A DNA stretch of 64,000 nucleotides. Source: an uncultured Rivularia sp. (GTDB lineage: Bacteria; Cyanobacteriota; Cyanobacteriia; Cyanobacteriales; Nostocaceae). Position numbers and translations under genes: made by a program. The notes below the pieces were generated by a model. The model was not told where the DNA came from and searched no databases. It saw only the letters and a program-made list of their open reading frames with translations. Of the stretch, positions 3,076 to 64,000 are shown one piece after another; positions within the stretch are counted from its first letter, which is position 1, and each line of letters opens with the position of its first letter. Where the stretch lies: assembly GCA_963665115.1 (NCBI GenBank), contig OY762007.1, forward strand, positions 4,224,001-4,288,000, given 5' to 3'.

Positions 3076-3204
3076 TTAGACTGTAAAAAAGTCTTCTTCT
3101 GCCCAAGCTGGCATTGAGTCTTTTGCTGCCATTGTCAAAATGGCATAGTCTTTTTTGTTGACTCCTGTAGGCAAATCTTTTGGAACTCCTAATACTGTCT
3201 GGGT
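3076..3204 (-). CDS. hupS: Uptake hydrogenase small subunit, 3' segment (last 42 aa; interrupted)
   Basis: Hand translation TQTVLGVPKDLPTGVNKKDYAILTMAAKDSMPAWAEEDFFTV-stop matches the cyanobacterial HupS C-terminus; an in-frame TAA at 3205-3207 stands where Lys is expected; lies directly upstream of hupL. Confidence 0.92.
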   Translation of the reverse strand, partial: TQTVLGVPKDLPTGVNKKDYAILTMAAKDSMPAWAEEDFFTV

Positions 3205-3209
3205 TTACT

Positions 3210-3223
3210 GTATGGTGTGGTAC
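3210..3223 (+). promoter_or_regulatory. NtcA-like box GTA-N8-TAC upstream of the recombinase
   Basis: gtatggtgtggtac, 38 nt before the ATG at 3262; no canonically spaced -10 seen. Confidence 0.45.
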
Positions 3224-3261
3224 TATTATTCTTATAGACAAAATAATGCTTTAACCGATAT

Positions 3262-4579
3262 ATGCGAATAGGATATGCCCGTGTATCAACTCGTCAGCAA
3301 GCAGATACGGAAGCGCTTGACCAACAAATTAGCCGACTTGAAAAAGCTGGGGCACAGAAAATCCTCTATGATATCGAATCAGGCAGGAAGGATACTAGAA
3401 AAAACTTTAATCAAACAATTGCTTTAGCTAAAAACGGAGTCGCAACAGAAGTGATTGTTACGCGGCTAGATAGACTTGGACGCAACGTAATTAGCATCCA
3501 TAAAACAATAGAAATACTTCAAAAAGCTGGTGTTAAACTTACCATTTTAGATTCTCCTTTAGGCGATACAAACTCCGCTTTCGGGTGGCTAACCATCAAT
3601 AATATTGCCGGGTTGGCAGAGTTTGAGAGTCGTTTGTTATCTGAGCGTGTCTCCCACGGAACTGATTACTATCGCTCAAATCTTAAGTATTTCGGGAAGC
3701 CACCATTTGGCTATACAAAGAATGAAGACGGTAGATGTATCCCTCACCCTACTAATTGGTCGATAGCTAAGGAAACAATCCGTAGACTTTATACTAATTC
3801 CTTTGCTTCTATTACTCGTTGGCTGGTCGAAACTTATGAAATCAAAATGTATCCTTCGAGCTTTCGTAATTGGTTGCACAACCCTGCAATACGAGGTCAC
3901 ACATTTTATAAATTGAAATCAGGTGAATTTGAACGGCATTACGGAACGCATGAGGCATTAATATCTGAACGAGAATATGAAGATATATCAAAAATAACTG
4001 CTCATGTAAATAAAAAAGACCCAAGCAAATTTAAGCCCCACATTCTTGCTGGAATATTCAAATGTGGCGTTTGCGGACATGCTATGACTAAAACGAAGGC
4101 AGGAAAACAGTTTCAATGTACGCAATACAAGCAGTTTGGCAAAGCTGGATGCAGCAACGGGAAGACAATCGCTAAATCTATAGTCAAAAAAGAAGTGATA
4201 AAAGTTCTCATTCAGTATGCTTCCGAAGTTGTACGGGAAGTTAACAACCGAACGCAAACGGATACGATAGTCGATGAAAGGTTAATTACACTACAACACC
4301 AACTGCAAACACTTCAGTCACTTCCTAGCAATCGGGCAATCGAAACGGCGATCGCTGACCCTAAAGCAACAAATAAAAAATTACGAGCAGCAAAGTAATA
4401 TTCGTGAAGCCAGGACAGAAGAAGATAATTTAATGTTACGCTCGTTTGGTCAAGCTGACTTCTGGGAATCTTTATCTGATACGGAGTTTAAAGTTATCTG
4501 TTTACGTTTTATCGAAAGAGTTGTATTCAATGGTGGAAGGGATATAGAAGTCTTTTTACTCGATAGTTCCCTTCCATAG
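3262..4579 (+). CDS. Large serine recombinase, XisF-like (frameshift near 4360)
   Basis: YARVST catalytic motif, TRLDRLGR, CGVCG..FQC zinc ribbon; removing one C at 4359-4361 extends the frame through a coiled coil and FWESLS..FIERVVF to TAG 4579. Confidence 0.9.
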
Positions 4580-6280: not shown

Positions 6281-7030
6281 GTGAATAATATTGTAAAGCA
6301 AGAAATACTGAGTCAACTAGAGTCAGAAGAACAGTTTCCTGTGGATTTTGATATCTATTGGCAATGGTTGGAATTTAGCAGTAAAGGCAATGCTAAACGA
6401 GCTTTTGAAAAAACTGGATTTATTATGGGGCAAGACTTTGACCATATTATCCGAAATGATAATATGGTTAAACGCTCTCAAGGAGGAGGTGTTCAGTTAG
6501 AAAAACTGATGCTGACAATCGACTGTGCTAAATCATTCGCTATGATGGCACGAACGGAAAAAGGTCGAGAGGTAAGAAAGTGGTATTTACAATTAGAAAA
6601 ACAATGGCGTTCTCAAAAGCAGACAATACCGCAATTTGGATTAGAAATAAATCGGCAATTATCCAAAATTTTAGAGATTCAGTGTCATTTAGAGCTTCAA
6701 CAACATTTACTATTAGCTAAAACCGAACATTTAACCGAGTCCTTGGAAGCCCACGACAAATGGTTGCAAGGGATAGATGCAGAATTAGAACGTATAGAAT
6801 CTTCATCCGGTCATTATTTTACAGTTGTTGGTTACGCTAATCTTCATAAAATAAAGCTTGGTAAAACTCAAGCAAATAGTTTAGGAAGAAAAGCATCTGC
6901 TTACTGTCGTAAAAATGGAATGCGTAAAGAGGAAGTTTTTGATTCTATGTATGGAACTGTTGGGAATTATCCGCAAGAAGCATTGGAATTTGTTTTTCAA
7001 TCTGAAGGTAAGATTTTCTTGAATCAATAG
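6281..7030 (+). CDS. Phage antirepressor-like protein (AntA/AntB type) with coiled coil
   Basis: FPVDFD..WQWLEFS.KGNAKR and LTIDCAKSFAMMARTEKGREVRKWYL. Confidence 0.7.
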   Translation: MNNIVKQEILSQLESEEQFPVDFDIYWQWLEFSSKGNAKRAFEKTGFIMGQDFDHIIRNDNMVKRSQGGGVQLEKLMLTIDCAKSFAMMARTEKGREVRKWYLQLEKQWRSQKQTIPQFGLEINRQLSKILEIQCHLELQQHLLLAKTEHLTESLEAHDKWLQGIDAELERIESSSGHYFTVVGYANLHKIKLGKTQANSLGRKASAYCRKNGMRKEEVFDSMYGTVGNYPQEALEFVFQSEGKIFLNQ

Positions 7031-7109: not shown

Positions 7110-10100
7110 ATGTCGAGAAAATATAAAAAAGGAAGACATTCAAACAAGCAGCAGCCTTGTTCTGTTTGCGGTAACACGTCGGGTAGTTGTAAGATAAATG
7201 ATGATGGTAGCATTTATTGCTTCCACTCCACACCAAATTCCGTACCATCTGGTTACATCCATATTCGAGAATTATCGGATGGTATGGGACATTCTTTTAT
7301 CTCTTCTTACGTAGTTGATGAATTATTAATGGCAGCCAAAGAACTCCAAAATTGTGGAGAGAAAGCAACCTGCAAAGAAATGGCTGGCTTAACAGGGCGA
7401 CCTTCTTCGTGGGCTTACGCCGTTCAAAAAGCTTACTCATCGTACTTTCCTGAATGGAATAAATTTAACAATCATCCGAATGCTACGTTCGTTGAAGCTA
7501 GTAAGCAAGATAATCAATCTCCTCCAACAGATAAGGAAGATTTTCCACCACCGTCAGTTTTGAGCGAGGAAGAAAGAGATAAGCAATATTGTTCAATATT
7601 AAATCAGCTTCCATTAAATGAAACTCACCGCAATCATTTAACGGATGTGCGCGGATTAGAAAAATTTATTGACTTTATTGGTTTTCGTTCGTGGTCAGAA
7701 AAACCAGTAGAAAATGTTAGCGCCTATCTCGCTGGAGTAATCAAACGTGACGACTCATTGTATTTGTATAAGCAATCAGGAATATTTTTACCAATTTATA
7801 ACGAATTAGGACAAATCATAGCTTTTCAAATTCGTCCGGATGATACAAGTAATGGCAAATACAAGTGGGGTTCCTCTGCACCATCTGGTGGTAATGGACC
7901 TCGCTTGGACAATGGAGAAATGCCGCTTGCATTCTGTCGTCCAGAATCGATTGAGTTACCATCAATTGGTTTAGCTGAAGGAGTTTTGAAAGCTTGGTCG
8001 GTTGCCTGTAACCTGAAGCAAATAATTATAGGAGCATCTGGAGCAGCCTGGGATTGCAGTCCAAAATTATTCAAACGTTATTTAGAAAAAATTGCGAGTG
8101 AGCAAAATACTTCATTATCAAACTTAGTGATTGATTTGTATGTAGATGCGGGAATGCTCTCTAATCAACACATCATGCTCCGTTACCACGAAACAATCAA
8201 ATTATTGCAGGAATGGGAATGTAAAATACGTATTGCTTGGTGGGGACAATTTAGTAAAGATGACCTAGACATTGACGATTTGATTCTTCAGGGGAAGCGC
8301 CATAGTATTACTTATATTTCAATAGATGAATGGATGAAACTATGGTCAGATGACATCCGTAACTATTTGCTATATAAATCAGTACAGTTCAACACGTCAG
8401 ATTGGTCGGCACCAGTGCAACATCCATATAGGTCAGAGTTAGGTTATTGGAAGAAAATGAATGCAGAGTGGAAATGGATTCCCAAAGCAGGCTTTAGCTT
8501 CATTGTGGAACGTGAGTTAGTTGGAACAAACGACAATTATGGGGGATTAGTTTTACAAGTAAAACGTACTTATGACCCACCACAAGAGCAGCATAGAGTA
8601 GTAGTGAGTGCCGAAGCATTTAACAAGGTAACGGATTTTATTAATTGCTTATCGCGTGCAACGGGGAAAGTGTATTTTGTTAACAAATTGAAAGTAGATG
8701 AACTTCATAAGTATTTGCATAAAGAATTGTCCGCATACCGAGAACGTGGCGGAAAGCCCTATAAATTATCAGAACGTTTAGGACGGCAATCAGATGGGAC
8801 TTGGGTATTTCATGATTGTCAAATAAGTAAAGATGGAGATTTAATTACGGAAAAAGAATCAGGTTGGGTACTCAATGAAAGATTAATAGCCACAGAAAAA
8901 ATTCCGGTTCCTAAAATCAATACTCAAGCAGAACCAGATGTATTACCACGTTTGGTAAATTCCATGCGTAACTTCTTCGGAGCAGAAGGTTTTATGCCAG
9001 CTTTATTTACAGCGGCATTTTCTGTCGCTGGTTTGTTTTACGATGAAATCCAACAAGAGGAAGGATTTTTCCCAGTTTTGGGACTTTACGGAGATGCGGG
9101 AACAGGAAAAACACTTGCAGCAGTTACTGCACTTTCAGTGTTGGGTTTTGACCATAGAGCCAAGATTAATAAAGCATCTGAAAGCGCTTACCACGAGCGA
9201 TTTAAACTTATGGGTGGGTTAACTCAGTTTCTTGATGACCCAGATAAAACTCAAATTTCTTGGGTTTGTCAGCAAATCAAATCTCAATTTGGTGGGGGTT
9301 CTCGTTCGGTGCGAGAAAATAATCAAGACCCCCCATAGTCCGTTAATTGTCGCTTCTAATTATTCGATTGGTGATGATGACCCAATAATTCTGTCACGGT
9401 TGATTCGATTAGAATTTTGTGGAACCCCAAGCCCTGCGGCTTTCCCCGAATTGAGAGCAATGTCGCGTATATGTTCGTCTGCTCTACCCAATCTAATTAA
9501 ACTTGGTTACGACCAAAAAGGCATCAAAGACTTAGAATCACAGCTAATCGCCAAGTTACCAACGGCTCATGCAAGGTTAGCATCGAGTTTAGCGTTAATT
9601 GGTTACTATGCTTTAAAAGTAGCTCAATTAAGTGGTGTTGTTTCAACAGAAGAAGTTTGGGCTTATTTAAGCTTATTGTGTGGTGAAGCAAATGAAGATG
9701 AATCTAAGAAGGCTTCATTGGATGACTTTGTAGATAAGCTTTTGATATTGCGATCGCAAACTGAAGTCGGTGAGTGGAACTGTAGATTAATTACCGAACA
9801 TGGGAATCCTGAAAACGGAAATTATAAATCTTTGGCTGTTTATCTGCATGGGGTTTGGTCGTTGATGTCTCGCTACTTTAAAAATAACCTTCCCTATAGT
9901 CAAAAAATGATTCGACAGCAGATAGAAAAAACGGGAGGGAAGACTTATAGCAAGCAAAAATTCCACTGTGACAGGGATTCTTCGATTACTTACCAACGGT
10001 TAAAAATTAATGTTAGAGCTGATGTAGATGGTGAGATTTTACAGCCCTTGCCCCCAGAAATGGTGACTCGTAGTTGTGTGGAAATTCCTATAGAGTTAAT

Positions 10101-10197
10101 TTTAGAGCGATTATCTTGCTTTGAATCCGGCTTCGAGCAAAATATCGAAGATTGTCAGACACCAGTTACTGCTTCGAGTGGAGTGAATAGTGGCTAG
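7110..10197 (+). CDS. Primase-helicase replication protein (Zn-binding domain, TOPRIM, DUF927-like ATPase); frameshift near 9330
   Basis: CSVCG..C..C; AEGVLKA, DAG and DIDD TOPRIM motifs; Walker A GDAGTGKT; FLDD; ORFs 7110-9338 and 9232-10197 join at the C6 run. Confidence 0.8.
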
Positions 10198-11285: not shown

Positions 11286-11867
11286 ATGCTTTATAAAGCG
11301 TCTAATTTTTCTGAATCGCGCCAAGGAGACTGTTATCCCAAACATTTAATTAGTGCATCTACTTTAATGCGAACTGGCTTATTTATCGCTTTACTAGATT
11401 CAATTATTTATCCGAGTTTAGTCAGCTTTATCACGTCAGCATTTTTAATATCTGGGGTAGTTGCAATTACTTGGCGACAAAATTTAGATGCTTTATTTAG
11501 AGCTATTACAAAGTTTTCTAAACGATACAAAGTAACTTCCTCTGCCCTAATAGTTTTAGGCACATTTTTACTGTTAGATGCTCTCTCAACTCCGGTGCAA
11601 GCACAGTTTTTCCAAAATGCAGAAACCTGGATGAGTGGGCAGTTTACAGGTGCGGATGAAGCAATTGTTTTATCATTTAACGTACTACGAGGATTATTCT
11701 TGCTTTACTTAGGAATCTCTTTAGTCAAAGTAATTCAAGCTGCCAGAGACAATGAAGATTGGCAGAATTTAGCCAGAACACCAATGATTATTTTGATTGC
11801 AGTAACAGTAGGCGATATTCTAACCAATTTAATTATTGGAGGAGGAGGTGCTGCACCTGGAGGATAA
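11286..11867 (+). CDS. VirB2/pilin-like T4SS membrane protein
   Basis: PVQA-QFF processing-like site followed by two hydrophobic helices; first gene of the T4SS cluster. Confidence 0.55.
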   Translation: MLYKASNFSESRQGDCYPKHLISASTLMRTGLFIALLDSIIYPSLVSFITSAFLISGVVAITWRQNLDALFRAITKFSKRYKVTSSALIVLGTFLLLDALSTPVQAQFFQNAETWMSGQFTGADEAIVLSFNVLRGLFLLYLGISLVKVIQAARDNEDWQNLARTPMIILIAVTVGDILTNLIIGGGGAAPGG

Positions 11868-11915
11868 GAGGCAGGGAGCGGGCATTAGAGTTTAAAAAAG
11901 GAAAATAGATAAGAC

Positions 11916-12236: not shown

Positions 12237-12248
12237 TAAGTTCCACAG

Positions 12249-14958: not shown

Positions 14959-14985
14959 ACTGAATAGTTACATGACTATAAAACT

Positions 14986-52153: not shown

Positions 52154-52299
52154 AGATTAAATCCATTAAATTAATTTAATGGAGAGCCGAGTATGAGGAA
52201 CTAACTCAACCAATAACCAATTTCTCATAAACAAATGAAATTAAGATGAAATTACTGAATAATAAAGTCTTTTTGATATAGTTAAAAATGCTTTTCATC

Positions 52300-55200
52300 T
52301 TAACCGTGCCATCTTAATTTTTTCCTCATCCCAGACAACCCATTCGTAATATCATCGACAAGCGAATAAACTACAGGTACAACAATTAAAGTCAGCAGTG
52401 TGGAAATAACCAAACCACCCAAAATTACCGTAGCGATAGGTGAATAAGCGTCCATCCCGGTTTCTGGAAAAAAGGCGAGTCGAAAAATTACAATGATTGT
52501 AGTAAAGGTGGTCATCACAATCGCTTTGAGTCGAACTGGTCCGGCTTCCCGAATTGCAATGTCTCTTGGTTCTCCTTCCTGACGTTTTGTCAAAATTAAT
52601 TCTAGTAATAAAATAGCTGCGGAAACTGATAAACCAGATAGAATAATAATTCCCAAAATCGAAACTGTAGACAAAGTTTGTCCTGCAAGCAATAGCGCTC
52701 CAAATACCCCTACCAACTGCAAAGGAATTGACAGCATCATTACCAAAGGTTGGATAAACGAACCAAATTGAATTACCAATATGAGATAAATCAGTAACAA
52801 AGAAACCACCAAGCCTTGTAAAAGTCGCTCAAACTCAATCATCATATCCGTCATGTCCCCCATCGAATCGATACCGTAACCGGGGGGAAAGTCTAATTTA
52901 CTACCCGCATTCATGGCGATCGCCATTGATAAGTCCATAGAAGCGGGACCATCTTTACGATAATATCCGTTGACATAAACCACCCGTTTTCCGTTGACTC
53001 GTTCAATTAACGTCGGTCCTTGTTCCCGTTGTAATGTTGCTACGGTACTTAGTGGAACTTGCCGATTGTCCGAGGTAGTAATATAGGTTGATGACAAGTC
53101 TTGCTGAGTTCCCCGGTCTTGTTCGTCGTACCGTACTAAAATAGAATTTTGTCTTAGATTGGGACGATTATAATATCTGCGAGTGTAACCCCCATTCAAA
53201 GCATAACGAGCTTGTTCGGCGATGTCTTTGATATTTAACCCTAGTTCCTTGGCTCTACGACGGTCAATTTTTAACTGAAATTCTGGCTGAGTCATTGCCG
53301 AACTTGTATGTGGCATTACTAAGTCTGGGGTGTCTTCAGCGATACCCAGCACACCCTGAGCTAAACGATGTAATTCGTCCAAATCTTCACCATAAACCGC
53401 CAACTGTACCGGCGCTGCCGATGTAGCCATTACGTCTACACCCATTTCCTTCATCGCAATGCGTCGCAAACCGGGAATAGTACTGCGAGCTTCGGTTTTG
53501 ACTTCATCAATAATTTGCCAAATATCCCTTTCTCGTGCCCCAACATCCTTGAGAGTCACAATCGCTGAAGCGGTATTGACTCCCCCCATGCTGTAACCAC
53601 TAAAGTAAGTACTGTTGCGCGTTAGTTCAAAACCAACTTGTGAAGAAACCTTTTCGACTTCCGGCTGTTCTAACAGAATTTTTTCAAACTTTTGAGCAAG
53701 CTGGTCAGTTTTACTAAAAGATGTCCCCGGTTCAAATTCTATCGTTGCCATAATTTGACCGGAATCACCCAAAGGCATCATTTCTTGCCCAATTAACGGA
53801 TATAAACTAAATGCTAGAACAATAGAAGCACCTGTCAAAGCTAAAGTAATTTCACGGTTTTTCATGCAGATGTCGAGCAACCAACCGTAACCTTGCTCTA
53901 ACTTATAAAAGCTGTAACGTATCGGAGTCAGCAATCTCTGCAACCAGGTTTTACGTCTGCCTTTTTGATGTAGTGGTTTAAGGAAGAATGCTGCAAGTAA
54001 AGGAATCAAAGTAATTGAAACAATCAGCGAAGAGAGAAAAGCAAACACCATCGGATAAACCAACCCGACAAACATCAGCCCAGTTAATCCACCAGCAAGT
54101 ATCGTCGGTAATAAAGCCGCAATCATTACACAGCTTGCAGCAGCACTTGCTAAAAATACCTCTCCCGTTCCTTTAATTGCTGCTTCGTGGGGTTTATGTC
54201 CTTCTTGTAGTTTCCGGTCAATGGAATCAATTACAATAATCGAGTCATCCACCAGTTTACCAATAGCCATCATCATCCCAATCAAAGTTGACGAATTAAG
54301 CGACATTCCAATTGGGATAAAAGGAAGCATCGATAGCGCTAGGGATGTGGGGATAGAAATCATTACAATAGCTGTGGCTCGGAAGTTTTCTAAGAAAACC
54401 AGAATTACCAAACCCGCAAGCACAACGCTAATCAGTAATTCCCCGGTGGTACTATCTTTAATTAAATTAACCAAATAAGAATTATCATAAGCAACCTCAA
54501 ATTCTAAACCCGGATACTGTGCCTGTATTTTGGTTAATTCAGCGCGTACCCGTTCGATAACTTGCGGCGAACTAGAATCCGGTTTTTGAATAACGTTTAC
54601 TGCTAATGCGGCTTCACCATTGTAGCGATAACCACTGCGACGTTCTTCATAAGTATCTTTAACAGTAGCAACATCTCTGACATAAACCACCTGTCCCGAC
54701 TTTTCCAACACCGGGTAATCCATCACCGCACGAGCATTCAGCGCTCGTTCGTCGGTACGTACCAGAATTTCACTATCTCCCCTCGTCAGCACCCCCGCAC
54801 CTTGACTAACATTATTTGCGTCGATCGCATCTCGTACTTGTAATATAGATAAACCGTAAGCAGCCAACTTTTGACGGTCAATAATTATCTGCAACTGTCG
54901 CCGATAACCGCCAAAAATTGACACCGCTTGTACATCCCGCACCTGAGTTAATCTATCAACCAAAGTGTTGTCAGCAAACTCCCGTAAACGTACCGGGTCC
55001 CAACCTTCTCCCCGTAAAGCCAGAGTTAATACAGGACGGTTGAGCGGGTCGATGGGTAAAACCCAGTAGGAACGGGTATTAATCCCATCAAGCGTCAAAT
55101 CTCCCTCCGCAGCAGTCATCACGCTTTGTACTTCCTGCACCGAGTTTTCAATATCTCCCCCCCATTCAAACTGCACAGAAACTAAAGACATATCCTGTTG

Positions 55201-55458
55201 CGAACTCGAACGGATAAACCGCACGCCATCTAAAACAGTTAAACGCTGCTCAATTGGTTTACTGATATAGGTTTCCACTTCATAGGGTGAGGAACCGGGA
55301 GCCATTGTCACAATTGCTACCAAAGGACTTTGGACATAAGGCATCATCCTTACCGGGAGTAGGAATAACGTAAGGGTAGCGAGGACGAGGATACCGATGT
55401 ATAAAGCCGCGAGTACTACCGGATTTTTGATTGACCAGCGAGTGAGGAAGTATTTCAT
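52300..55458 (-). CDS. RND efflux permease (AcrB/CusA superfamily)
   Basis: 1052 aa; AIGKLVDDSIIV, RLKAIVMTT, ILGGLVISTLLTLIVVPVVY. Confidence 0.92.
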   Translation of the reverse strand: MKYFLTRWSIKNPVVLAALYIGILVLATLTLFLLPVRMMPYVQSPLVAIVTMAPGSSPYEVETYISKPIEQRLTVLDGVRFIRSSSQQDMSLVSVQFEWGGDIENSVQEVQSVMTAAEGDLTLDGINTRSYWVLPIDPLNRPVLTLALRGEGWDPVRLREFADNTLVDRLTQVRDVQAVSIFGGYRRQLQIIIDRQKLAAYGLSILQVRDAIDANNVSQGAGVLTRGDSEILVRTDERALNARAVMDYPVLEKSGQVVYVRDVATVKDTYEERRSGYRYNGEAALAVNVIQKPDSSSPQVIERVRAELTKIQAQYPGLEFEVAYDNSYLVNLIKDSTTGELLISVVLAGLVILVFLENFRATAIVMISIPTSLALSMLPFIPIGMSLNSSTLIGMMMAIGKLVDDSIIVIDSIDRKLQEGHKPHEAAIKGTGEVFLASAAASCVMIAALLPTILAGGLTGLMFVGLVYPMVFAFLSSLIVSITLIPLLAAFFLKPLHQKGRRKTWLQRLLTPIRYSFYKLEQGYGWLLDICMKNREITLALTGASIVLAFSLYPLIGQEMMPLGDSGQIMATIEFEPGTSFSKTDQLAQKFEKILLEQPEVEKVSSQVGFELTRNSTYFSGYSMGGVNTASAIVTLKDVGARERDIWQIIDEVKTEARSTIPGLRRIAMKEMGVDVMATSAAPVQLAVYGEDLDELHRLAQGVLGIAEDTPDLVMPHTSSAMTQPEFQLKIDRRRAKELGLNIKDIAEQARYALNGGYTRRYYNRPNLRQNSILVRYDEQDRGTQQDLSSTYITTSDNRQVPLSTVATLQREQGPTLIERVNGKRVVYVNGYYRKDGPASMDLSMAIAMNAGSKLDFPPGYGIDSMGDMTDMMIEFERLLQGLVVSLLLIYLILVIQFGSFIQPLVMMLSIPLQLVGVFGALLLAGQTLSTVSILGIIILSGLSVSAAILLLELILTKRQEGEPRDIAIREAGPVRLKAIVMTTFTTIIVIFRLAFFPETGMDAYSPIATVILGGLVISTLLTLIVVPVVYSLVDDITNGLSGMRKKLRWHG

Positions 55459-55540
55459 TGAGGAGAGGGAAGTTTTTTAACGCAAAGTTACGCAGAGGTA
55501 AGCGCGGAGGTACGCGGAGGGGTTTGGTTAAATTCTCTAT

Positions 55541-55966
55541 CTATTTAACATCAAATGTATAATTCGCTTGACCATTAAGTTTGGGGTCTTTTACTTGTGT
55601 AATAACATTCCATTTACCCTTCATTCCAAAATTGGTTTTGATTTTATATCTTCCTGGTTGCGTGTCTGGTTCTACTTTTGCCATTGAGGTCATATCTTCT
55701 TCACCTTCCATTGGCATGGAAACGTTTACGTCTAAGGTTTCTACAGCAACGGGTTTCTGGGTTTGGGGGTCGATAACTTCTACAATTAGCTGATTGTTGC
55801 CCATTTTTACGGCTTCTTGAGAATTGGGACTAACTAGATTTATTTTGGCGCTTTCTATTTGTTGTTGGGATGCGGTGGTTGATGTTGTTTCTGTTTGTGC
55901 TTCTGGAGTGGAGCAAGCGATTGTGAAAAAGCTGAGTGTTAGTAGTAGGGGGAGTAGTTTAATCAT
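55541..55966 (-). CDS. YtkA/FixH-like lipoprotein
   Basis: Lipobox IAC; SMPM..M; PGRY....FGMKGKW. Confidence 0.75.
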   Translation of the reverse strand: MIKLLPLLLTLSFFTIACSTPEAQTETTSTTASQQQIESAKINLVSPNSQEAVKMGNNQLIVEVIDPQTQKPVAVETLDVNVSMPMEGEEDMTSMAKVEPDTQPGRYKIKTNFGMKGKWNVITQVKDPKLNGQANYTFDVK

Positions 55967-55984
55967 TGTTTTGTTTGTGATTAG

Positions 55985-56150
55985 GTGAGTTGAAGATTTA
56001 TGAACCGCAGAGGACGCTGAGGACGCTGAGAAAGAGATGGGGAGAGAAGGTAGAGGGAAAGTGAGGAAATATTTGTAGTGGGAGCATCTTGCTCCCTAGC
56101 TGCTTAATAAACGATGCCCAATGCCCTTCGGCCCCATGCCCAATTCCCAT
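55985..56150. repeat. Intergenic short repeats: gaggacgct, a GTAG REP-like hairpin and tgccca-type heptamers
   Basis: gaggacgctgaggacgctgag; gtagtgggagcatcttgctccc; tgcccaatgcccttcggccccatgcccaattccc. Confidence 0.6.
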
Positions 56151-57986
56151 TACTCAACATTAAAATCAAATTCTGCTTTCCCTTGATGTTTGGGGGTCTT
56201 TGATTTTAACTACGACATCCCATTTCCCTTTCATCCCAAAGTGGGTATCGACTTTGAAGCGTCCGGGTTGTGAGTCGGGTTGGACTTCTACCATTGATGT
56301 CATTGGAGCCATATTTTTCATGGGCATGGTTACTTTCACGTCTAGGTTTTCTACTGCTATGGATTTATTAGTTTTTTTATCTAAAATTTCTAAAATTAAT
56401 TCTGCGCTACCTTTTTTAACTGGGTTTTTAGGACTGATTAATTTGATTTGTGCGTTTCCTTGGGATGTATTATTCCGCTTTGCTAGAGTTTCTCCAGATT
56501 CGTCAACTACAGATACTTTTTGATTTTCGATTAGTCTGGAATGTCCGGAGGTAATTACCATGTCACCGGGTTTTAAACTGCTGGTAATTTCAATTTGTTC
56601 GCCGCTGACTAATCCCGTATTTACTGTTTTGCGTAAAGCTGTTTCTCCATCAACTACCCAAACTGCTGTTTTATCTTTAAATTGAGTTAAAGCAGATTGG
56701 GGTACTGATAAAGCGTTTGGTTGACGCTCGGTAATAATTTGCATTTCCAGAAATTGCCCGGATAGCAATTGATTGCCGGGATTGTTAACAACGGCTTCGA
56801 TGGTAACGGTGCGGGTGTTGTCGTTGGTTTGCGGAAATATGCTGGTAATTGAAGCTGTAATTTCTTTAACGTTGCTACCGGGAACTTTGGCGACGATGGG
56901 AGTCCCGACTTGTATTTTCGCTGCATCTCGCTGGGAAACGTTAGCACGCAGACGTACACGCTGATAGTCGCCTATTTTAAGAATTCCCATACTTGGCTGC
57001 ACTACCACACCGGGATCTACCATCCTTTCTTGAACGATACCGGCGATGGGTGACTGGATTTTGGTATATCCTTTCATAATTGAGGCAGTAGCACTTTTTG
57101 CTCTGGCTTGCTTAACATTACTGCGAGCGCTGCGAACCTGAGCTTCTAACCGTCTTATTTTTACTTGTGCTGTTTTTAACGCAGCTTGGGCGGTTTTAGC
57201 TTTAGTATTTTCAATATCGTATTGGTCTTGAGAAATTGCGCCTTCTTTGACTAACAAAGCATAGCGATCGCGTTTCTTTTCTTGATATTCTAATTCGGCT
57301 TTTAGTCGCGCAATCTCTTGTCGTTGCTCGTTTACTTCGATTTGCGATGCTTCTAATTCAGTTTCCATCGAATCGGCTTGGGCGGCGGCTTCGGCTACTT
57401 GAGTTAATTTTTCAGCAGCATCGAGTGTCGCTAATGGTTGTCCGGAAGTAACTTTGTCTCCAGGATACACTGAGTAATTAGTAAGCTGTCCGGCTATCCG
57501 GGGATACACGGTAACTTCTTGGTAAGGATGAATCGAACCAGTATACTGAACGCTAGCCGAAAGTAAACTCGGTTTGACTACTTTCACAGTTACGGGAGTT
57601 GGATTAAACGAGCCGTTGACCTGCATCATATCGTCGTGGGACATATTCGACATATCATGTCCTTCCATCCCAGCCATTGACGAAGCAGGTTTTAACTGAT
57701 TGGTAACTGCTAAGATACCTCCGGAAAGCAAGACGAAAATGCCAATACCTAAAAGTGTTTTCCCCGGACGCAGCGAAGATTCCACGGGTTTTTTATCCTC
57801 CTTGCGAGAACGTTTAAGTAAAAATCCACCGACAATTGTTAACAAACCAACTAGAAAAATTCCTCCACCCAGCAAAGTTGTGTGAGTTAGTAAATTGTTA
57901 TCGGGTGCGCCACCATGATTCATTCCCTCGTGACTTTCCGACGGTTTCATTTGGGACAGAATTACAGGTGTTGCTGTGAAAGGCAT
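56150..57986 (-). CDS. RND periplasmic adaptor with Met/His-rich segments and a C-terminal YtkA-like domain (frameshift near 56194)
   Basis: GDKVTSGQPL, IQSPIAGIV, LKPGDMVITSG; a one-G correction gives HQGKAEFDFNVE-stop. Confidence 0.85.
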
Positions 57987-58046
57987 GGTTAAGGAGCAAT
58001 TGCGGTTTACATATCCACTTACATTTGCCCATGATGCCAGCTAATT

Positions 58047-58063
58047 ATGAAATTGGGATGAAA
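58047..58063 (-). promoter_or_regulatory. TTTCAT-N5-TTTCAT box upstream of the RND operon
   Basis: atgaaattgggatgaaa. Confidence 0.75.
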
Positions 58064-58255
58064 TTTCTTGTTCGTGGTTTGCAGAAATAATTATGCACCC
58101 CCTCACAGCAATTTTTGAGGTATGCAACGCAGCGTGAAGGCTTTGTATAGCGTCTGTAAAGTATGCAAGTGCTACTAATAACTGTCAAAATAGAAGGTTA
58201 GTATAAAAATAAAATTATTAACTTAAAAAATAGATAATTTTAACCATTTAAAAGA

Positions 58256-59512
58256 CTATACTCTAAACACAATTGCGGGGTCTACTTTGCTGACTTTCTG
58301 AATTGCAAATAAGGCGGAACCAATACACATCAAGACAGTTATGCCAAAAACCCCAATAGCTGTTAATGGAGTAATTAAAATTACAATACCTTGAGTTGCT
58401 GAAGTCCAAGCACCTACCCCTAAGCAAAGCAACATTCCTGGAATATAACCAAGAATTGACATCCATAGAGCTTGCTCAATGATTACGCCATATATCACCC
58501 TGTTTGATGCCCCCATAGCTTTGAGCGTGCCAAATTCTTTTAAATGGTCGGTGACTGCTGAGTATAGAATTTGACTAACAATCACAACTCCTACAACCAC
58601 ACCAACTCCTGCACCCAAACCTAAAATAAATCCAATTCCCGTGGATTTTTGCCAATAAATTTGTATTTTTTCAGATAATTCTGCTGTCGTATATGCTTTA
58701 GTTTCTGGGAAAGTGGCTTCTAAGCGTTTTTTTAATTGTTGAATATTTTGACCTGGCTGTGCCTGAATCAATACGTAAGATATGGGCGAATTTAAGCTTA
58801 ATTGTGGTGGTGGTTCGTTCTGCGATTGTTGTTTCTTAGCATCAGCATCTTTATCTTTTTTGTAAACGTTGCGACACTGAAGTTCTTCTCCAACCCAGGT
58901 ACAGTTAACGTTTGTAGTAACGCTAGCATTAAGGTAGGCATTTGCAGTGTCTAAAGAAGTAAATAAAAAGGGACTTGAAACAACTGATTGAGTATCTTGG
59001 GTTAAGCCGATTACTTGTACTGGTAATGAGCCAATTTGACCCATATCTCCAATTTTTTTTATTTGGAGAGACTTTAAATTACTTTTATCAATTATTGCTG
59101 TATAGGGATTTTCCAGAGATTTGACGTTATTATTAACCGTGTTTCCAGGTACAAATAATTTTCCCGTAGGCGAAAATCCGTATATCTTAACCACATTGAT
59201 TTTGCCACCAGGTACACTCCAATTAGCCGCACCCTGAAGCAATGCTTCGGCTCTTTTTACACCATCAACTTTTTTAGCTCTAACGGCATAATCAAACAGA
59301 AGTGGTCGCGTCAGTTCAAGTTGTATCATCTTATCCGATGCTAACCAGATATCGGCTGGGGAATTTTCGACTAAAGCTACAGTAGAACGAATAACCCCAT
59401 TCAAGACTCCAGTTTGAATAGTCACTAAGCTGACAGCAAACATGATTCCCGCTTGAGCTACTAAAAAGCGCGGAATGTCTTCAAACAGGTTTTTGCGAGC
59501 AATAGAAACCAT
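58256..59512 (-). CDS. FtsX/DevC-like ABC permease
   Basis: SIARKNLFEDIPRFLVAQAGIMFAV, EFGTLKAMGAS, VDPAIVF. Confidence 0.85.
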   Translation of the reverse strand: MVSIARKNLFEDIPRFLVAQAGIMFAVSLVTIQTGVLNGVIRSTVALVENSPADIWLASDKMIQLELTRPLLFDYAVRAKKVDGVKRAEALLQGAANWSVPGGKINVVKIYGFSPTGKLFVPGNTVNNNVKSLENPYTAIIDKSNLKSLQIKKIGDMGQIGSLPVQVIGLTQDTQSVVSSPFLFTSLDTANAYLNASVTTNVNCTWVGEELQCRNVYKKDKDADAKKQQSQNEPPPQLSLNSPISYVLIQAQPGQNIQQLKKRLEATFPETKAYTTAELSEKIQIYWQKSTGIGFILGLGAGVGVVVGVVIVSQILYSAVTDHLKEFGTLKAMGASNRVIYGVIIEQALWMSILGYIPGMLLCLGVGAWTSATQGIVILITPLTAIGVFGITVLMCIGSALFAIQKVSKVDPAIVFRV

Positions 59513-59640
59513 TTGAATTGAAAATTGTTAAGAACTAATTCTGCAAAAAAGCTTCAACATATTGAAAATTTGAATTTAAAAAGACTTTAATAAAGACACG
59601 AGAATGAACTGCTTTCTTGCAGAAGTAACTTTAGTTAAAC

Positions 59641-59722
59641 AATGTCAAGAACTCGGAAAGATTACAATGCCTTTATTTAGTTACAGTTCTAAAAGGCGGA
59701 ATCTTATCAAGTTCTTGACACT
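59641..59722. promoter_or_regulatory. Two divergent AATCTT-N5-GTTCTTGACA boxes
   Basis: 59641-59663 (minus) and 59700-59722 (plus); third copy at 62376-62398. Confidence 0.65.
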
Positions 59723-59764
59723 TCAAAAGTAAGTTAATAAGCAGGTAATTTACTATAAAATCAA

Positions 59765-61477
59765 ATGACAAGCCTTTCTTTGTCAGTTCTGGCTGCTTAT
59801 GCTTCCTATCACAAAGTTAAGTTAACTCGTAAAACTCTTCAGGTCTATACAGTCCAAGAGCGGTTTTTGCTTAATCTCCTCAAAGCCCACCAAAACACTG
59901 AAATGGGGAGAAACTTGGGATTAAGCAGCATTAAAACTATTGGTCAATTTCGCCAGCAAGTTCCGATTCTGCCTTATGAAAGCTACGAGCCTTACGTTAA
60001 ACGCATCAGCCAAGGAGAGAAAAATGTTCTCAATCCTGAACCAGTAGTCTATATTAATCTGACCAGTGGTTCCACTGGAAACAAAAAGCAAGTGCCTGTG
60101 ACTCGCACTTTTCAAGCTTCCTTACGACGGGCAGATTTAGCTAGTATGGGCTTTGCAATCGAATTGCTACAGCAGCGGGGGCTAGAGTTTGGCAAAACGC
60201 TGCTCCCTAACTCGGCGAATTTACAAGGAATTACAAATGGTGGTATTCCTTACGGTCCGGTGAGTGTGGGCAGTATTCGCAAGGGTAAGTTTCTGTTTGA
60301 GCAAGCTTTTGTGCATCCCTTTGAAGCGCTCAAAATTGCCGATAGTCTTGCTAGACATTATGTCTGCCTGCTATTTGCCCTGCGAAATCGAGATATGCGG
60401 GGATTTACGGCTAATTTTCCGATGTTGGTTTTGCGTACCTGCGGCTATCTAGAACGCTACGGGGAAGACTTAATTAATGACCTAGAAACTGGTGCGATCG
60501 CCTCTTGGTTAAAATTAGAACCGCATATTCGCGCCAAGCTAGAGCGTAAATTATTCCCAGTATCAGAAAGAGCCGCAGAGCTAAGGCAAATCCTCGAAAC
60601 AGAGGGAAGACTTACGCCGAAGCAAGTATGGTCTGGTTTATCCTACATTCTCACGGCTCAAGGAGGAACATCGGACTTTTATTTGCAGCATTTCCCGCAT
60701 TACTTTGGAGATACTCCTGTGTTTGGTGGTGTCTACGGTTCGGCGGAAGCTACATTTAGCGTTTATCATAAATTCAATTCCGAAAGTGGCATCCTGGCAA
60801 TTGAAAGCGGGTTTTTTGAATTTATTCCCCAAGAACAGTGGGAAGTCGAAAATCCTCAAACTTTTCTGGCAACAGAAGTACAGCCTGGAAAACTTTACCG
60901 CATTTTAGTTACAAGCTACAGTGGTTTTTACCGTTATGACATTGGCGACGTTGTAGAAGTAGTAGGATTTTATAATCAAGCTCCCTTGATTGCCTTTCGC
61001 TACCGTCGGGGTGGACTGCTATCTTCCACGACCGAAAAGACAACTGAATGTCACGCAATTGGGGTAATGCAAGCACTCCACCAAGAGTTTAATCTGCGCT
61101 TAGATGATTTCTGCATCACACTTTCAGAGCAGGAATTTCCCGCTCATTATATAGTTAATATCGAACTGGCTGCGGGAGAAACATTAAGTAATCCCCAAGC
61201 GTTCCTGAATCGTTTTGAGTATTGGCTCAAACAGATAAATACTCCTTACGGAACCGTGCGTGAGGGACAAGTACCACCACCTATATTAAGAATTTTAAAA
61301 CAAGGCAGTTTTAATATTGTTCGTCAGCGACAGTTAAAAAAAGGTATGCCTGATTCTCAACTCAAGTTACCCCACATCACTGAAGACCGTTCGTTTTTAG
61401 CTGAACTCCCTATCGAATATGAAGTCACATTATCTGATGAATGTGTCAATCAAATTCTCTATCCTCTTGCTGATTAA
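59765..61477 (+). CDS. GH3 family acyl-adenylate/amide ligase
   Basis: TSGSTGNKK.VP, YGSAE, FFEFIP, YRYDIGDVV. Confidence 0.88.
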   Translation: MTSLSLSVLAAYASYHKVKLTRKTLQVYTVQERFLLNLLKAHQNTEMGRNLGLSSIKTIGQFRQQVPILPYESYEPYVKRISQGEKNVLNPEPVVYINLTSGSTGNKKQVPVTRTFQASLRRADLASMGFAIELLQQRGLEFGKTLLPNSANLQGITNGGIPYGPVSVGSIRKGKFLFEQAFVHPFEALKIADSLARHYVCLLFALRNRDMRGFTANFPMLVLRTCGYLERYGEDLINDLETGAIASWLKLEPHIRAKLERKLFPVSERAAELRQILETEGRLTPKQVWSGLSYILTAQGGTSDFYLQHFPHYFGDTPVFGGVYGSAEATFSVYHKFNSESGILAIESGFFEFIPQEQWEVENPQTFLATEVQPGKLYRILVTSYSGFYRYDIGDVVEVVGFYNQAPLIAFRYRRGGLLSSTTEKTTECHAIGVMQALHQEFNLRLDDFCITLSEQEFPAHYIVNIELAAGETLSNPQAFLNRFEYWLKQINTPYGTVREGQVPPPILRILKQGSFNIVRQRQLKKGMPDSQLKLPHITEDRSFLAELPIEYEVTLSDECVNQILYPLAD

Positions 61478-61680
61478 AAGTTTAAAAAACCTTAATATTA
61501 GGTCAGAGTAGTCATCGTAATACCCGATCTTGTGAAGTAAAAATAAGTATATTGTTCTGTACGTTAAACTCCGTGCAGAGTCAGTTTGCCAAGAAAAACT
61601 TAGTCAGTAAAAAATACTGAAGGGGAATGAAGAGCAATGGGAGTTTTATTAATTTATCCTTACTTGTAACTCTTTAATCT

Positions 61681-62091
61681 ATGAAAAAAAACAGCACGTT
61701 CCAAAATTGGAAACAAAGAGTTAGACAGCTAAAAGGGGAAACCTCTGCTCTTTATTATGCTAGCAAAGACCCAAGAACACCTTGGTATACTAAATTTCTT
61801 GCTATATGTGTAGTTGCTTATTTATTCAGTCCGATTGATTTGATTCCGGATGTAATTCCTATACTGGGTTATTTAGATGATTTGATATTAATACCGTTGG
61901 GAATTTTTTTACTTTTGAAGCTAATACCTAAAACTGTAATGGATGAATCTCGTGAAAAGGCAAAAATAATTGAGAATACACCAAACAGCAAATTTATCAC
62001 AATAATTATAGTTTGCATCTGGATATTTACCGGAATGCTAACAGTTTTTTTAATTCATAGTTTGTTCCAAAATAGTAAAAAATCATTTTAA
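61681..62091 (+). CDS. DUF1232 (YkvA) membrane protein
   Basis: DPRTPW.., YLFSPIDLIPDVIPILGYLDD. Confidence 0.88.
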   Translation: MKKNSTFQNWKQRVRQLKGETSALYYASKDPRTPWYTKFLAICVVAYLFSPIDLIPDVIPILGYLDDLILIPLGIFLLLKLIPKTVMDESREKAKIIENTPNSKFITIIIVCIWIFTGMLTVFLIHSLFQNSKKSF

Positions 62092-62501
62092 CGATTAATG
62101 TTCGTGTTGTTTCACCTTGCAATTAAATTATTTTTGAAACTGAAATTTGTCGAGACTAAAACTGAAGTAAGTTACAAGTTATGTCTTTGAAACAGAATGA
62201 TTTCTAATTAGATGTTTAATGAATAACTGACATCGCCTTGTTTAAGTAGAAAAAACAAATTACTGGTAAAATCCTGGTTATGGTAGTTCATGGGAAGCGG
62301 CTAAAGTATGGATTATAAATCATATTTTTTTGATTATTAATATCATTTTATAAAAATTTACAAAATGTGAATATAAATCTTCCCAACTTCTTGACATTTA
62401 AGTTTTATTGTGAAATAACAAACCGAATTCAACACTATAAAATTGTTTTACCATAAACTAATATGCTTGATTTTATTGGTAAGAAGGTAAAAGCTGAAAC
62501 C

Positions 62502-63182
62502 ATGAAAATCTTAATTGTGGAAGATGATAGCCGAATAGCTAAAGCGCTGGCTGAAGATTTAAGACATCAACATCATGTAGTTGATATTGCTCCCGATGGA
62601 ATTGAGGGATGGAATTATGCTCAAACAACTGAGTATGACTTAATACTATTAGATTTGTTGCTACCGCGCTTAGATGGTGTTAGTCTTTGCAAAAAATTGC
62701 GAGCAGATAGATGTAATGCTCTAATTTTGATGTTAACATCCAAAGATACTACCACTGATAAAGTAATTGGACTGGATGTCGGAGCAGATGACTATTTAAT
62801 AAAGCCCTTTGAATTAGAAGAATTAGCCGCACGAATTCGCGCTTTATCCCGTAGAACTCCAGAATTTAAACCACCAATTTTAACTCACGGTAAACTACAA
62901 ATTGACCCCAATAGTAGCGAAGTTTTTTATGCAGGCAATGCTCTTTATTTGACACCCAAAGAATACTTAATTTTAGAATACTTTCTGCGCCATACCCAGC
63001 AAGTTTTAACCCGTTCGGCAATTCTTGAAAAACTTTGGGAATTCGACAAATTTTCTGGAGAAGGAACGGTGAAAACTCATATTACCAACTTGCGTAGTAA
63101 ACTCAGAACTGCTGGAAGTCCAGATAATTTAATTGAAACAGTCTATGGTGTGGGTTATCGTTTAGGCGCGGTTGATGATTAA
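62502..63182 (+). CDS. OmpR-family response regulator
   Basis: MKILIVEDD, DLLLP, GADDYLIKPF, ETVYGVGYRL. Confidence 0.9.
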   Translation: MKILIVEDDSRIAKALAEDLRHQHHVVDIAPDGIEGWNYAQTTEYDLILLDLLLPRLDGVSLCKKLRADRCNALILMLTSKDTTTDKVIGLDVGADDYLIKPFELEELAARIRALSRRTPEFKPPILTHGKLQIDPNSSEVFYAGNALYLTPKEYLILEYFLRHTQQVLTRSAILEKLWEFDKFSGEGTVKTHITNLRSKLRTAGSPDNLIETVYGVGYRLGAVDD

Positions 63183-63218
63183 AAAAGTTTAGAAAATGTT
63201 ATCAACACCCTTCAAGTA

Positions 63219-64000
63219 ATGTTTCAGAAAATTCGCGATCGCCTACTTTTATCTAACTTAATTGTTTTTGCAATTGTTCTAGGAGGATTTGCAATTGTTG
63301 TGCGAGTTGTTTTTGTTCGCAGCCTCAATCAGCAAGTCATAGATAAACTTGTAGTTTTAGGACAAGGTGTAACTGTAGATGCAGAATTAGAAGCAGGAAA
63401 ACTAGATGTTGATGAACATTGGCAAGTTAGAGATTTAGATGCTCGTCAAGGTGGCATACAATGGTTTGATACTCAAGGTAATTTACTCAAGCAGCAAGGT
63501 AAATACATTTTAAATTTACCTTTGAATCCAAATACAACCGTGCAAAAACAAACTGAAGAAGAACGAAAAATTCAAGCAGTAACCTTACCAGTTTTGGATA
63601 ATGAAACTCAACAAAAAATTGGTTATATCAGAGTCAGTCAATCTTTAGAAGAGTTTGATGAAACTATCCAAAAATTAGACTTTGGTTTAGGTTCTGGCGT
63701 AATTTTTGCTTTATTTTTAAGCGGATTTGGGGGATTGTGGCTTAACCGTCAATCAATGCAGCCAATTGAAGAAAGTTTTGAACGTCTCAAGCAATTTACT
63801 GCTGATGCTTCTCATGAATTACGCAATCCTTTGATGGCAATTAAAAGTAGTGTCGCAGTCGCTTTGAAGTATCCAGAAGGAATGAGAACTATTGATGAGG
63901 AAAAATTTACCGCTATTGCCAGCGCCACCAATCAAATGACTCAATTAACCGAAGATTTACTACTTCTAGCACGCACGGATAAAATTGCCGATATCGAGCG
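63219..64000 (+). CDS. Sensor histidine kinase, partial (runs off the window; not in the ORF track)
   Basis: MFQKIRDRLLLSNLIVF... two TMs, then LKQFTADASHELRNPL. Confidence 0.85.
   Translation, partial: MFQKIRDRLLLSNLIVFAIVLGGFAIVVRVVFVRSLNQQVIDKLVVLGQGVTVDAELEAGKLDVDEHWQVRDLDARQGGIQWFDTQGNLLKQQGKYILNLPLNPNTTVQKQTEEERKIQAVTLPVLDNETQQKIGYIRVSQSLEEFDETIQKLDFGLGSGVIFALFLSGFGGLWLNRQSMQPIEESFERLKQFTADASHELRNPLMAIKSSVAVALKYPEGMRTIDEEKFTAIASATNQMTQLTEDLLLLARTDKIADIE

Follow-up and report, generated by a model that had tools for sequence, protein, structure and literature searches.

The window analysed here is a stretch of 64,000 nt from an uncultured Rivularia sp. (GCA_963665115.1, contig OY762007.1, positions 4,224,001-4,288,000 of the forward strand), and its main feature is a large element that interrupts the hydrogenase gene hupS. 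The source genome, G000, is one contig of 8.69 Mb that is 99.93% complete; the window is G000:C1:4224001-4288000, and features outside it are placed by window-equivalent coordinates, which are counted on from window position 1 beyond 64,000. In this genome, hupS is interrupted at nt 838-839 by an element of 139,430 bp that runs from window 3202 to window-equivalent 142,631. A preliminary description of the window had proposed that hupS is split by a serine-recombinase element of more than 60 kb and that a 5′ piece ending in GTVFK would be found on the minus strand beyond 64,000. Both proposals were borne out, with the 5′ piece ending in GTVFKT and lying on the same strand and the same chromosome, rather than another replicon, as the 3′ piece. 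The 3′ piece is 83% identical to the end of the intact 320-aa HupS of Calothrix NIES-4101 (G017) and does precede hupL as described; it consists of the final base of Gln280 followed by 40 codons and a stop. No intact hupS exists elsewhere in G000, where family searches of the genome gave one match to PF14720 and two to PF01058, one of them the 5′ piece. Thus, hupS is single-copy and a second or relic copy is ruled out.

Element ends and unity

The crossover is a CA dinucleotide on the minus strand, present at 3201-3200 and at 142,631-142,630. Rejoining the two hupS pieces at CA yields a coding sequence of 963 nt and 320 aa with no internal stop, the same length as the intact HupS of NIES-4101. 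The circle junction formed by the element ends is palindromic at 19 of 30 positions in the CA register only, compared with 6-11 of 30 at five neighbouring registers, and a score of 19/30 was reached by just 20 of 200,000 random sites. The CA core occurs at both ends of the element with palindromic arms, and in three relatives the arms score 21/30, 17/30 and 18/30. The frame break had been placed at 3205-3207 with AAACC as the core, and this is corrected by the dyad analysis, in which AAACC or AC as the core gives only 6-11/30. The recombinase gene is indeed adjacent to the break, although its ATG at 3262 is ~60 nt from the crossover instead of 55 nt.

The evidence from sequencing runs consists of assembled contigs of eight runs, in which rare forms are dropped. 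The proximal junction is spanned by single contigs in four of four runs, which speaks against a chimeric assembly here. An internal att site separating the 3.2-10.7 kb module from the type IV secretion system (T4SS) region had also been considered. Inside the element there is no tRNA gene, no tyrosine recombinase (none of the 12 PF00589 matches in G000), no second PF00239 match and no further copy of either att arm at up to 5 mismatches in 22, and the order of primase and T4SS genes is common to sister elements that target tRNA genes. An internal boundary was rejected on these grounds. In addition, the hupS element of Calothrix parasitica NIES-267 (G004, locus L013) is 109,938 bp long and colinear with the G000 element from end to end, including the distal backbone, and its backbone open reading frames (ORFs) are intact. 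In another G004 element the distal module lies near a tyrosine integrase, which suggests that both element ends belong to one circular backbone map.

Gene content

The predicted genes of the element are those of an integrative and conjugative element (ICE) of the MPF-C (mating-pair formation), MOB-V type, bounded by the att sites of its recombinase (Table 1). This is based on a Pfam scan of 55 plus 75 (130 in total) ORFs. The assignment to MPF-C rests on gene order and on identity to the locus of pCC7120alpha, which serves as the MPF-C model plasmid in the accessible text of PMC4027160: nine of the ten operon genes match this locus in order, and all ten match the pTCL26-01_B locus. The conjugation region of pCC7120alpha also matches the VirD4, MobV, AAA, ParM-like, TraL-like, DUF6753 and 1277-aa genes of the element. 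Relatives of the VirB4 are found on 134 plasmid records (best 83% identity); plasmids contain no close relative of the recombinase (4 records, ~30% identity).

Table 1. Features of the hupS locus and the element within it (window coordinates unless marked as window-equivalent)
Feature	Position	Strand	Basis and remarks
hupL 5′ piece	2423..2947	-	174-codon ORF; PF00374 positions 1-79
hupS 3′ piece	3076..3199	-	Translation; codons 281-320 and stop; directly before hupL
Proximal att site	3200..3223		TG/CA crossover 3200-3201 and element-side arm; same arms in G003
XisF-family large serine recombinase	3262..4579	+	PF00239, PF13408; 438 aa in relatives, 378 aa as assembled here
Small antisense ORF, 58 aa	4450..4626	-	Overlaps recombinase 3′ end; no convincing Pfam family
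AntA/Ant antirepressor-like protein	6281..7030	+	PF08346 just under cut-off; PHROG anti-repressor families E 6e-13
Zn-finger/Toprim primase with helicase-like ATPase	7110..10197	+	1028 aa in G002 and G004; Walker A; Atlas neighbours Toprim/DUF927/DUF3854 0.96-0.98
MPF-C-type mating-pair operon, ten genes	11286..22318	+	Gene order as in pCC7120alpha and pTCL26-01_B
VirB4	12249-14958	+	Walker A/B; 54% identity to pCC7120alpha protein; TIGR00929 E 9e-8, below cut-off
VirB10/TrbI	17541-19250	+	PF03743
VirD4 coupling protein	22311..24138	+	PF02534, PF10412, PF12696 above cut-off; Walker A; 608 aa in G002; intact in G002 and G004
Backbone AAA ATPase	25866..27435	+	PF00004; 522 aa in G002
MobV relaxase	30144..31749	-	NF041497 161.5 bits (cut-off 100); HxDExxPHxH motif; 534 aa in G002
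ParM-like actin ATPase, putative ParR, TraL-like ATPase, DUF6753 protein	32675..35937	+	phrog_691 partition protein E 6e-10; NF010461 weak; PF20538
1277-aa protein of unknown function and Dam-like methyltransferase with 126-bp repeats	36624..42310	+	Backbone
Cargo	42956..64000, on to window-equivalent 118,093		Pfam; ~75 kb, mostly metal resistance and regulation
Distal backbone	window-equivalent 118,935-140,462		Type III restriction-modification, cytosine methylase, paired helix-turn-helix-like regulators (labelled by sequence appearance, without Pfam match), distal module
Distal att site	window-equivalent 142,608-142,631		Beyond window
hupS 5′ piece	window-equivalent 143,468 to 142,630 (279 codons to 142,632)	-	PF01058 and PF14720; ends GTVFKT

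The recombinase gene stands at the element end beside the hupS 3′ piece, in opposite orientation to it, and the copy in the related genome G002 scores 468.9 bits against NF041201 (XisF; cut-off 375). The N-terminal part of the primase-helicase is 30% identical to a plasmid protein of the CyRepA1 family (E 2e-20), and a single-sequence structure prediction for this protein was uninformative (pLDDT 35.5). The primase-helicase, T4SS, VirD4, MobV, ParMR and cargo listed in the preliminary description are present, except that of the ParMR pair only the ParM-like gene was matched, the putative ParR being named for its position. The cargo comprises RND efflux systems, heavy-metal P-type ATPases, multicopper oxidases, CopB, arsenic-type genes, two-component systems and two sigma-70 genes. 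A remnant of the 3′ region of the Dam-like gene is seen ~240 bp inside the distal att site, so that a short direct repeat (window 42168-42195 and window-equivalent 142361-142388) surrounds 100 kb of cargo. The distal module lies on the plus strand, includes an endolysin-like gene and points at the distal att site, before which an IS630 insertion sequence follows. All seven XisI-like matches in G000 are outside the element, and XisH was not among the Pfam matches of the 130 ORFs, with no separate search made for it. A promoter and terminator scan was at chance level (13 found, 15.0 expected).

Apparent frameshifts

Several element genes appear broken in the G000 assembly. Relative to the G002 copy, single extra bases occur in the recombinase, primase, VirB4, VirD4, AAA, MobV and ParM regions, with one near 4359 in the recombinase and another at 9329 that splits the primase-helicase. 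At positions 4359, 9329 and 12476, the extra base is absent in four of four runs, and at 4359 also in three of four further runs. Two runs, X1 and X2, match the G000 host allele without substitutions and may be the source data of the assembly. The G002 copy, which is 99.8% identical, has none of the extra bases and encodes whole proteins (recombinase 438, primase 1028, VirD4 608, AAA 522, MobV 534 and ParM 384 aa). VirB4 is open to the contig end in G002 and is 902 aa long in G001 and G003; the G003 primase is split in its assembly. Six of the nine extra bases listed for the element follow GACC, and two more are at GTCC on the other strand. A host oxidoreductase gene has gained a base too, and host genes such as the apparent prfC and recN of G000 are also split. 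Where checked, the frameshifts are errors of the assembly, and decay of the element by frameshifts is ruled out for the three positions compared with runs and for the G002 copy. This indicates that frameshifts in the G000 assembly should be checked against reads before pseudogenes are called.

Candidate directionality factor

The small antisense ORF that overlaps the recombinase 3′ end is 58-62 aa long and open in 19 of 19 loci, including a minimal element of 1.7 kb and the nifD-linked loci. In a block of 12 codons that is mostly outside the recombinase frame, nine of 12 variable columns are third codon positions (11 distinct sequences from 16 loci). Just past the stop of six of seven other XisF-type genes checked, an antisense ORF of 46-97 aa begins. 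From its position and size, the 58-aa ORF is a candidate recombination directionality factor, and such small antisense ORFs may be candidates for this role with XisF-type recombinases generally.

Relatives and origin of the Xis unit

A scan of the genome collection for the recombinase gave 26 loci, 20 of them cyanobacterial. Among these 20, 14 are right after the same hupS 3′ piece, four are beside a nifD-type piece, one is in an oxidoreductase gene and one is unplaced. The 14 hupS loci are varied: four have T4SS genes in the flank (L009, L010, L013 and L015), two are complete minimal elements of 1,673 and 4,301 bp with the same recombinase and arms and without the backbone, one is ~54.7 kb with no VirB4 inside, six have no T4SS genes in up to 10 kb, and one is too short to judge. 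In two of the six, in G012 (L020) and G009 (L017), the 5′ hupS piece is inverted relative to the 3′ piece, so that restoration would need an inversion, or the assemblies are wrong.

In a recombinase tree of 20 rows, from which the frameshifted L027 and six non-cyanobacterial loci were left out and whose deep forks are left open, all T4SS-bearing copies but one fall in a single supported clade (G000-G004; 97/96); the other, L015, is sister to the T4SS-free L028. The simplest reading of this tree is that the Xis unit would be older than the ICE backbone and was joined by it at least twice, the alternative being repeated loss. The preliminary description had suggested that such an ICE reveals how interruption elements spread. 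This fits the G000 element and, given an older hupS Xis unit, accounts for its spread better than for the origin of interruption elements generally.

Sister ICEs in G000 use a different integration module. One, at tRNA-Phe (5882133-6013058, 131 kb), has a tyrosine integrase and a 117-bp direct repeat, and another, at tRNA-Cys (1641346-1767677, 126 kb), has a tyrosine integrase and direct repeats. Homology between the hupS element and the tRNA-Phe sister in G004 starts at window 5733, just past the recombinase unit. More backbone pieces are found in G000 at 6.03-6.06, 6.13 and 6.20 Mb, and a second integrase at 6013863 suggests a tandem array of sister ICEs.

A survey of 151 family genomes for XisF-type genes near VirB4, in which pairs were matched by eye among the matches listed and which therefore gives a lower bound, identified a second ICE-type case. 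In G073, which belongs to another genus, nifH is split on a 6.77-Mb contig by 188,847 bp (277097-465944) flanked by an 11-bp direct repeat. This element has a serine recombinase at its start, Rep-like and DnaB-like genes (labelled from sequence appearance), the same MPF-C operon (VirB4 86% identical), MobV and a ParM-like gene; an insertion sequence interrupts its VirD4. A second, unsplit NifH-family gene is present elsewhere in that genome. A nifK element in G111, beside a conserved VirB4 cluster of 61% identity with no VirD4 seen, was rejected as a case of this type. Likewise, the backbone beside CnXisS2/CnXisS3 in NIES-4101 was not counted as an interruption, as it follows a complete hupS 3′ end. 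At this locus (G017:C1:3925139-3958000; L059-L061), a backbone with primase, T4SS and VirD4 genes comes after CnXisS2/CnXisS3 and a hupS piece with the 3′ end, and a second, intact hupS of 320 aa (79% identical in nucleotides) precedes hupL at 4126544-4127506. The table of junction reads in PMC11249958 has none for the CnXisS2/CnXisS3 site.

Probable spread between species

Host and element divergence were compared among the relatives. Over 11 kb of rpoBC, identity to G000 is 95% for G001, 90-91% for G002, 85-86% for G003, 86-87% for G004 and 68-79% for G005. Over the first 11.2 kb of the element, identity is 99.8% for G002 and 97.9% for G003 (95.7-99.8% by segment), and the recombinase genes of G001-G003 differ from that of G000 at 1-4 of 1100 nt. 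The G002 copy matches along the backbone, cargo and distal end at 98-100% identity, on separate contigs with gaps, and identity steps down at the att sites: the distal end matches at 2402/2405 positions inside the element and 43/52 in host hupS, and the proximal host side at 44/53. For the G004 and G005 elements, divergence parallels that of the hosts.

In G003, the crossover at the element start is the same, but the interrupted gene encodes a Gfo/Idh/MocA oxidoreductase. The distal arm of the element is on another contig, where it is followed by the rest of this gene in frame, and the gene is uninterrupted in G000. The two attB sites, in hupS and in the oxidoreductase gene, have in common the core and, at an equal offset from it, a motif of five bases. 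The host flanks are 71-90% identical to G000, and hupL and most of hupS were not found in G003. Such an insertion would require integration of an attP-bearing molecule by the recombinase. Runs X4 and X6, from two studies, and X7, from a third, also contain the element joined to hupS alleles that differ from G000 at 11-12 positions. Taken together, these comparisons indicate that the element likely moved between species by conjugation. At the start of contig C3 of G003 (G003:C3:1-3360; L098), hupS stops after ~18 codons, at the known nt-49 site, and the adjoining end has part of the ICE distal module; this is possibly another ICE-type hupS element.

Possible excision in vivo

Paired runs from one sample of a related natural population, S4, bear on excision. 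In the DNA run X4, a single contig at a depth of 27.9 covers the hupS 3′ piece and runs into the element. In the RNA run X20, a 1074-nt contig of the same host allele at a depth of 14.8 passes at the crossover from the hupS 3′ piece directly into 5′ hupS, with 24 of 24 letters matching the distal junction of G002 (L042) and 30 loose letters visible. Interrupted DNA beside rejoined RNA would be expected if the element were excised in a minority of cells with high expression. In the sister RNA run, X16, this place is not covered. G002 and S4, which have one allele in common, are possibly not independent. The DNA run X10 has a joined hupS contig at a depth of 7.6 beside element contigs at 4.6-6.3, which is indistinguishable from an empty-site strain, and rejoined hupS was not seen in X1 and X2, the runs that match the G000 host allele. 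RNA contigs over the recombinase are short, with a depth of 2-8, and RNA contigs on element genes were not counted as expression. Together with the restored reading frame, these data suggest that the XisF-type recombinase likely excises the element precisely during heterocyst development, restoring hupS.

Discussion

The observations are probably best explained by an ICE that resides in hupS and has captured an Xis unit. Its excision in heterocysts would benefit the host, and a separate, less frequent excision in vegetative cells would lead to transfer. In this view, an MPF-C/MOB-V backbone, combined in other elements with a tyrosine integrase and a tRNA target, would have swapped its integration module for the Xis unit of an older, often tiny, hupS element. 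The recombinase, with a directionality factor for which the 58-aa ORF is the candidate, would recombine the att sites at the CA core to give intact hupS and a circle. Excision in heterocysts would serve the host and be a dead end for the element. Vegetative cells would excise it more rarely, under the control of its own repressor and antirepressor, and this would yield a circle that is maintained by the primase-helicase and ParM, transferred by MobV, VirD4 and the T4SS, and inserted by the recombinase in a new host's hupS or at a secondary site. The preliminary description had likewise pictured an ICE-like, spreading element; its ICE gene set, its extent from att to att, the restoration of hupS by precise excision and its movement between species are supported, while self-transfer is what we infer from them.

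Several observations weigh against this explanation. VirB4 and VirD4 are significant matches that fall under the NCBIfam cut-offs, and no oriT was identified upstream of mobV, where there is no perfect inverted repeat of at least 8 bp and one 21-nt non-coding match to one of four sisters. MobV was not found in G001 and G005, two of the six genomes searched. The frameshift check against runs covers three positions, and the integrity of VirD4 and MobV rests on G002 and G004. The junctions in G002 and G003 come from metagenome assemblies; in G003 the middle of the element is missing, so that relaxase and VirD4 are unseen, the two ends are linked only via the split host gene, and the distal end is only 89-94% identical. 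The joined contig of X20 could come from a co-occurring empty-site strain, and that run carries no cell-type information on whether excision is specific to heterocysts. Finally, no circle (attP) junction was seen among the loose ends listed for the contigs of the eight runs, and the transfer functions could come, in trans, from sister ICEs of the same cells.

This last point leads to an alternative in which the element is not self-transmissible, its conjugation genes being passengers from an ICE that landed in an older hupS element, with spread via a sister ICE or another route. G000 has at least two sister ICEs and partial backbones, and G004 has three chromosomal backbone copies with MobV. 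Most elements at hupS nt 838 show no backbone in the flanks examined, the T4SS-bearing ones occupy two places on the recombinase tree, and the VirD4 split in the G073 nifH element indicates that such backbones decay. In addition, no experimental study of cyanobacterial conjugative systems had been found by PMC4027160, as stated in its accessible text. However, the backbone ORFs are intact in G002 and also in G004, although the latter copy is only ~85% identical, which argues for retained function, and the backbone, cargo pieces and both ends are shared with G002 at near identity. We therefore regard passenger genes as an unlikely explanation. A more radical doubt is that metagenome binning or long-read misassembly has produced the signs of mobility, and that the element is only a large, vertically inherited interruption. 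G001-G003 are metagenome assemblies, that of G002 is fragmented, and the G004 copy diverges about as much as its host (85-87% and 86-87% identity to G000, respectively), as vertical descent predicts. Against this, the G003 contigs with the junctions are 1.65 and 3.99 Mb long, the junctions are exactly at the crossover with the host frame restored, and the divergent hupS alleles of X4, X6 and X7, runs from three studies, are joined to the element; artefacts of this kind are thus very improbable.

The preliminary description had gone further, proposing that heterocyst differentiation itself releases a circle that replicates and conjugates, so that nitrogen starvation would drive spread. This is compatible with an ICE that has captured an Xis unit, and excision is needed wherever HupS is made, with the rejoined form present in RNA. 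The proximal arm contains a GTA-N8-TAC sequence (3210-3223), which we take to be an NtcA-like motif, and the layout is such that in the circular form the distal module, on the plus strand, would read across att into the recombinase, primase and T4SS genes. However, this sequence belongs to the palindromic arm, and only five of 20 relatives, as counted by eye, have it intact. Heterocysts are terminal and enclosed in a thick envelope (PMC4874684), neither a circle nor a T4SS transcript could be established in the runs, where recombinase RNA contigs are as sparse as described above, and nothing ties transfer to heterocysts. The proposal is thus not upheld by our data, and we consider it quite improbable.

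Heterocyst excision elements, including those in hupS, and cyanobacterial ICEs are each known, and their combination is apparently new. As in the fdxN element with XisF of Anabaena PCC 7120, the described hupS elements and Calothrix NIES-4101, a nitrogen-fixation-linked gene is split and, in the G000 element, likely precisely restored, and large sizes are known. An XisF-family recombinase next to the 3′ gene piece and opposite to it is the commonest layout in the accessible text of PMC4874684 (Hilton, Meeks and Zehr 2016). Table B of that study lists four hupS elements, at nt 49-51 and 610, with sizes of 30, 91 and 258 kb, and its accessible text leaves the origin and spread of interruption elements open while citing a phage-remnant hypothesis. 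A relative in NIES-4101 of 70% identity has the coordinates of CnXisD2, for which junction reads are reported in PMC11249958; the hupS fragments and junction reads of that strain are described there, and 'conjugat' and 'plasmid' occur 0 times in its main text. The G000 element differs from the interruption elements in these accessible descriptions in its site, nt 838-839, and in having a full conjugation module, a relaxase, genes for replication and partition, recent spread between species and a second target, with no XisI-like gene inside. 

Cyanobacterial ICEs, MPF-C, MOB-V and partition or replication genes in ICEs are covered in the accessible parts of PMC3158045, PMC4027160 and PMC5587801. 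With the MPF-C/MOB-V plasmids and ICEs of the first two, the element shares the same genes in the same order, including MobV, VirD4, AAA, ParM-like and DUF6753. It differs from them in being chromosomal with serine-recombinase att sites inside a protein-coding developmental gene, whereas the sister ICEs of G000 use tyrosine integrases at tRNA genes. A further parallel is in Bacillus subtilis, where the serine-recombinase units of SPbeta (spsM), skin (sigK) and an ICEBs1-SPbeta chimera likewise move an element and reconstitute a developmental gene in a terminal cell type. In the accessible text of PMC6957869, ICEBs1 equipped with the SPbeta recombination unit was able to excise and to transfer by conjugation, and recombination units are interchangeable. 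SPbeta and skin are prophages and the chimera is a laboratory construct, whereas the G000 element would be a natural ICE-type case, for which we infer dual control, and a natural counterpart of such engineered swaps. Among the top listings of full-text searches, from which subscription journals are mostly absent, no description of a conjugative heterocyst excision element or of the hupS nt 838-839 site was found, and the accessible part of PMC8987985 contains nothing on the combination of ICE and heterocyst excision.

These findings point to a vehicle for the spread of interruption elements, namely an apparently intact ICE that uses an Xis recombinase and has recently crossed species, and the insertion caught in a new target gene illustrates how a new element variant would start. 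The intact copy in the cultured Calothrix parasitica NIES-267 makes the question testable. In addition, the element is a source of a serine integrase for which two attB sites are known, together with a candidate directionality factor, and it is implied that heterocysts delete ~75 kb of mostly metal-resistance genes from their chromosome. It is tempting to speculate that interruption elements are a living mobile family, in which ICE backbones captured Xis units more than once (in hupS, and in nifH of G073) and reach new species and targets, with the small antisense gene as directionality factor. Nitrogen starvation might then launch excision and transfer, so that the host programme propagates the element and its metal-resistance cargo. 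As a whole, this broader scenario is doubtful.

Other interruptions and related loci

The hupL gene next to hupS is itself interrupted, which the preliminary description did not mention, and only 174 of its codons are in the window. It is split at the canonical hupL site by a separate element of 8,677 bp, which runs from window 2436 left out of the window to G000:C1:4217760 and has an XisC-like tyrosine recombinase and a direct repeat at both ends. The remainder of hupL is at genome 4216726-4217529 (PF00374 positions 235-508). Therefore, the uptake hydrogenase of G000 needs two excisions. In G009 (L017), an extra tyrosine-recombinase insertion is located near hupL codon 30.

About 18-20 kb left of the window (G000:C1:4203842-4205728; L058), nifN is apparently interrupted by an element of 1,886 bp, which has a tyrosine recombinase and a direct repeat of 7 bp. 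This gene is not among the 22 orthologs of Table 1 in PMC4874684. Three further tyrosine recombinases lie just upstream of the nifK 3′ piece in G000. Near gyrA (G000:C1:7642857-7652280), a VirB4 paralog of ~60% identity is found with a partial operon and no adjacent VirD4 seen. Some VirB4 match occurs in 120 of the 151 family genomes, many of which have the ~60%-identical paralog, possibly a domesticated secretion system. Lastly, G000 contains a cluster of 11 tRNA genes at C1:2710034-2711354, and ARAGORN calls a tRNA for Pyl (CTA anticodon) at 203200-203273.

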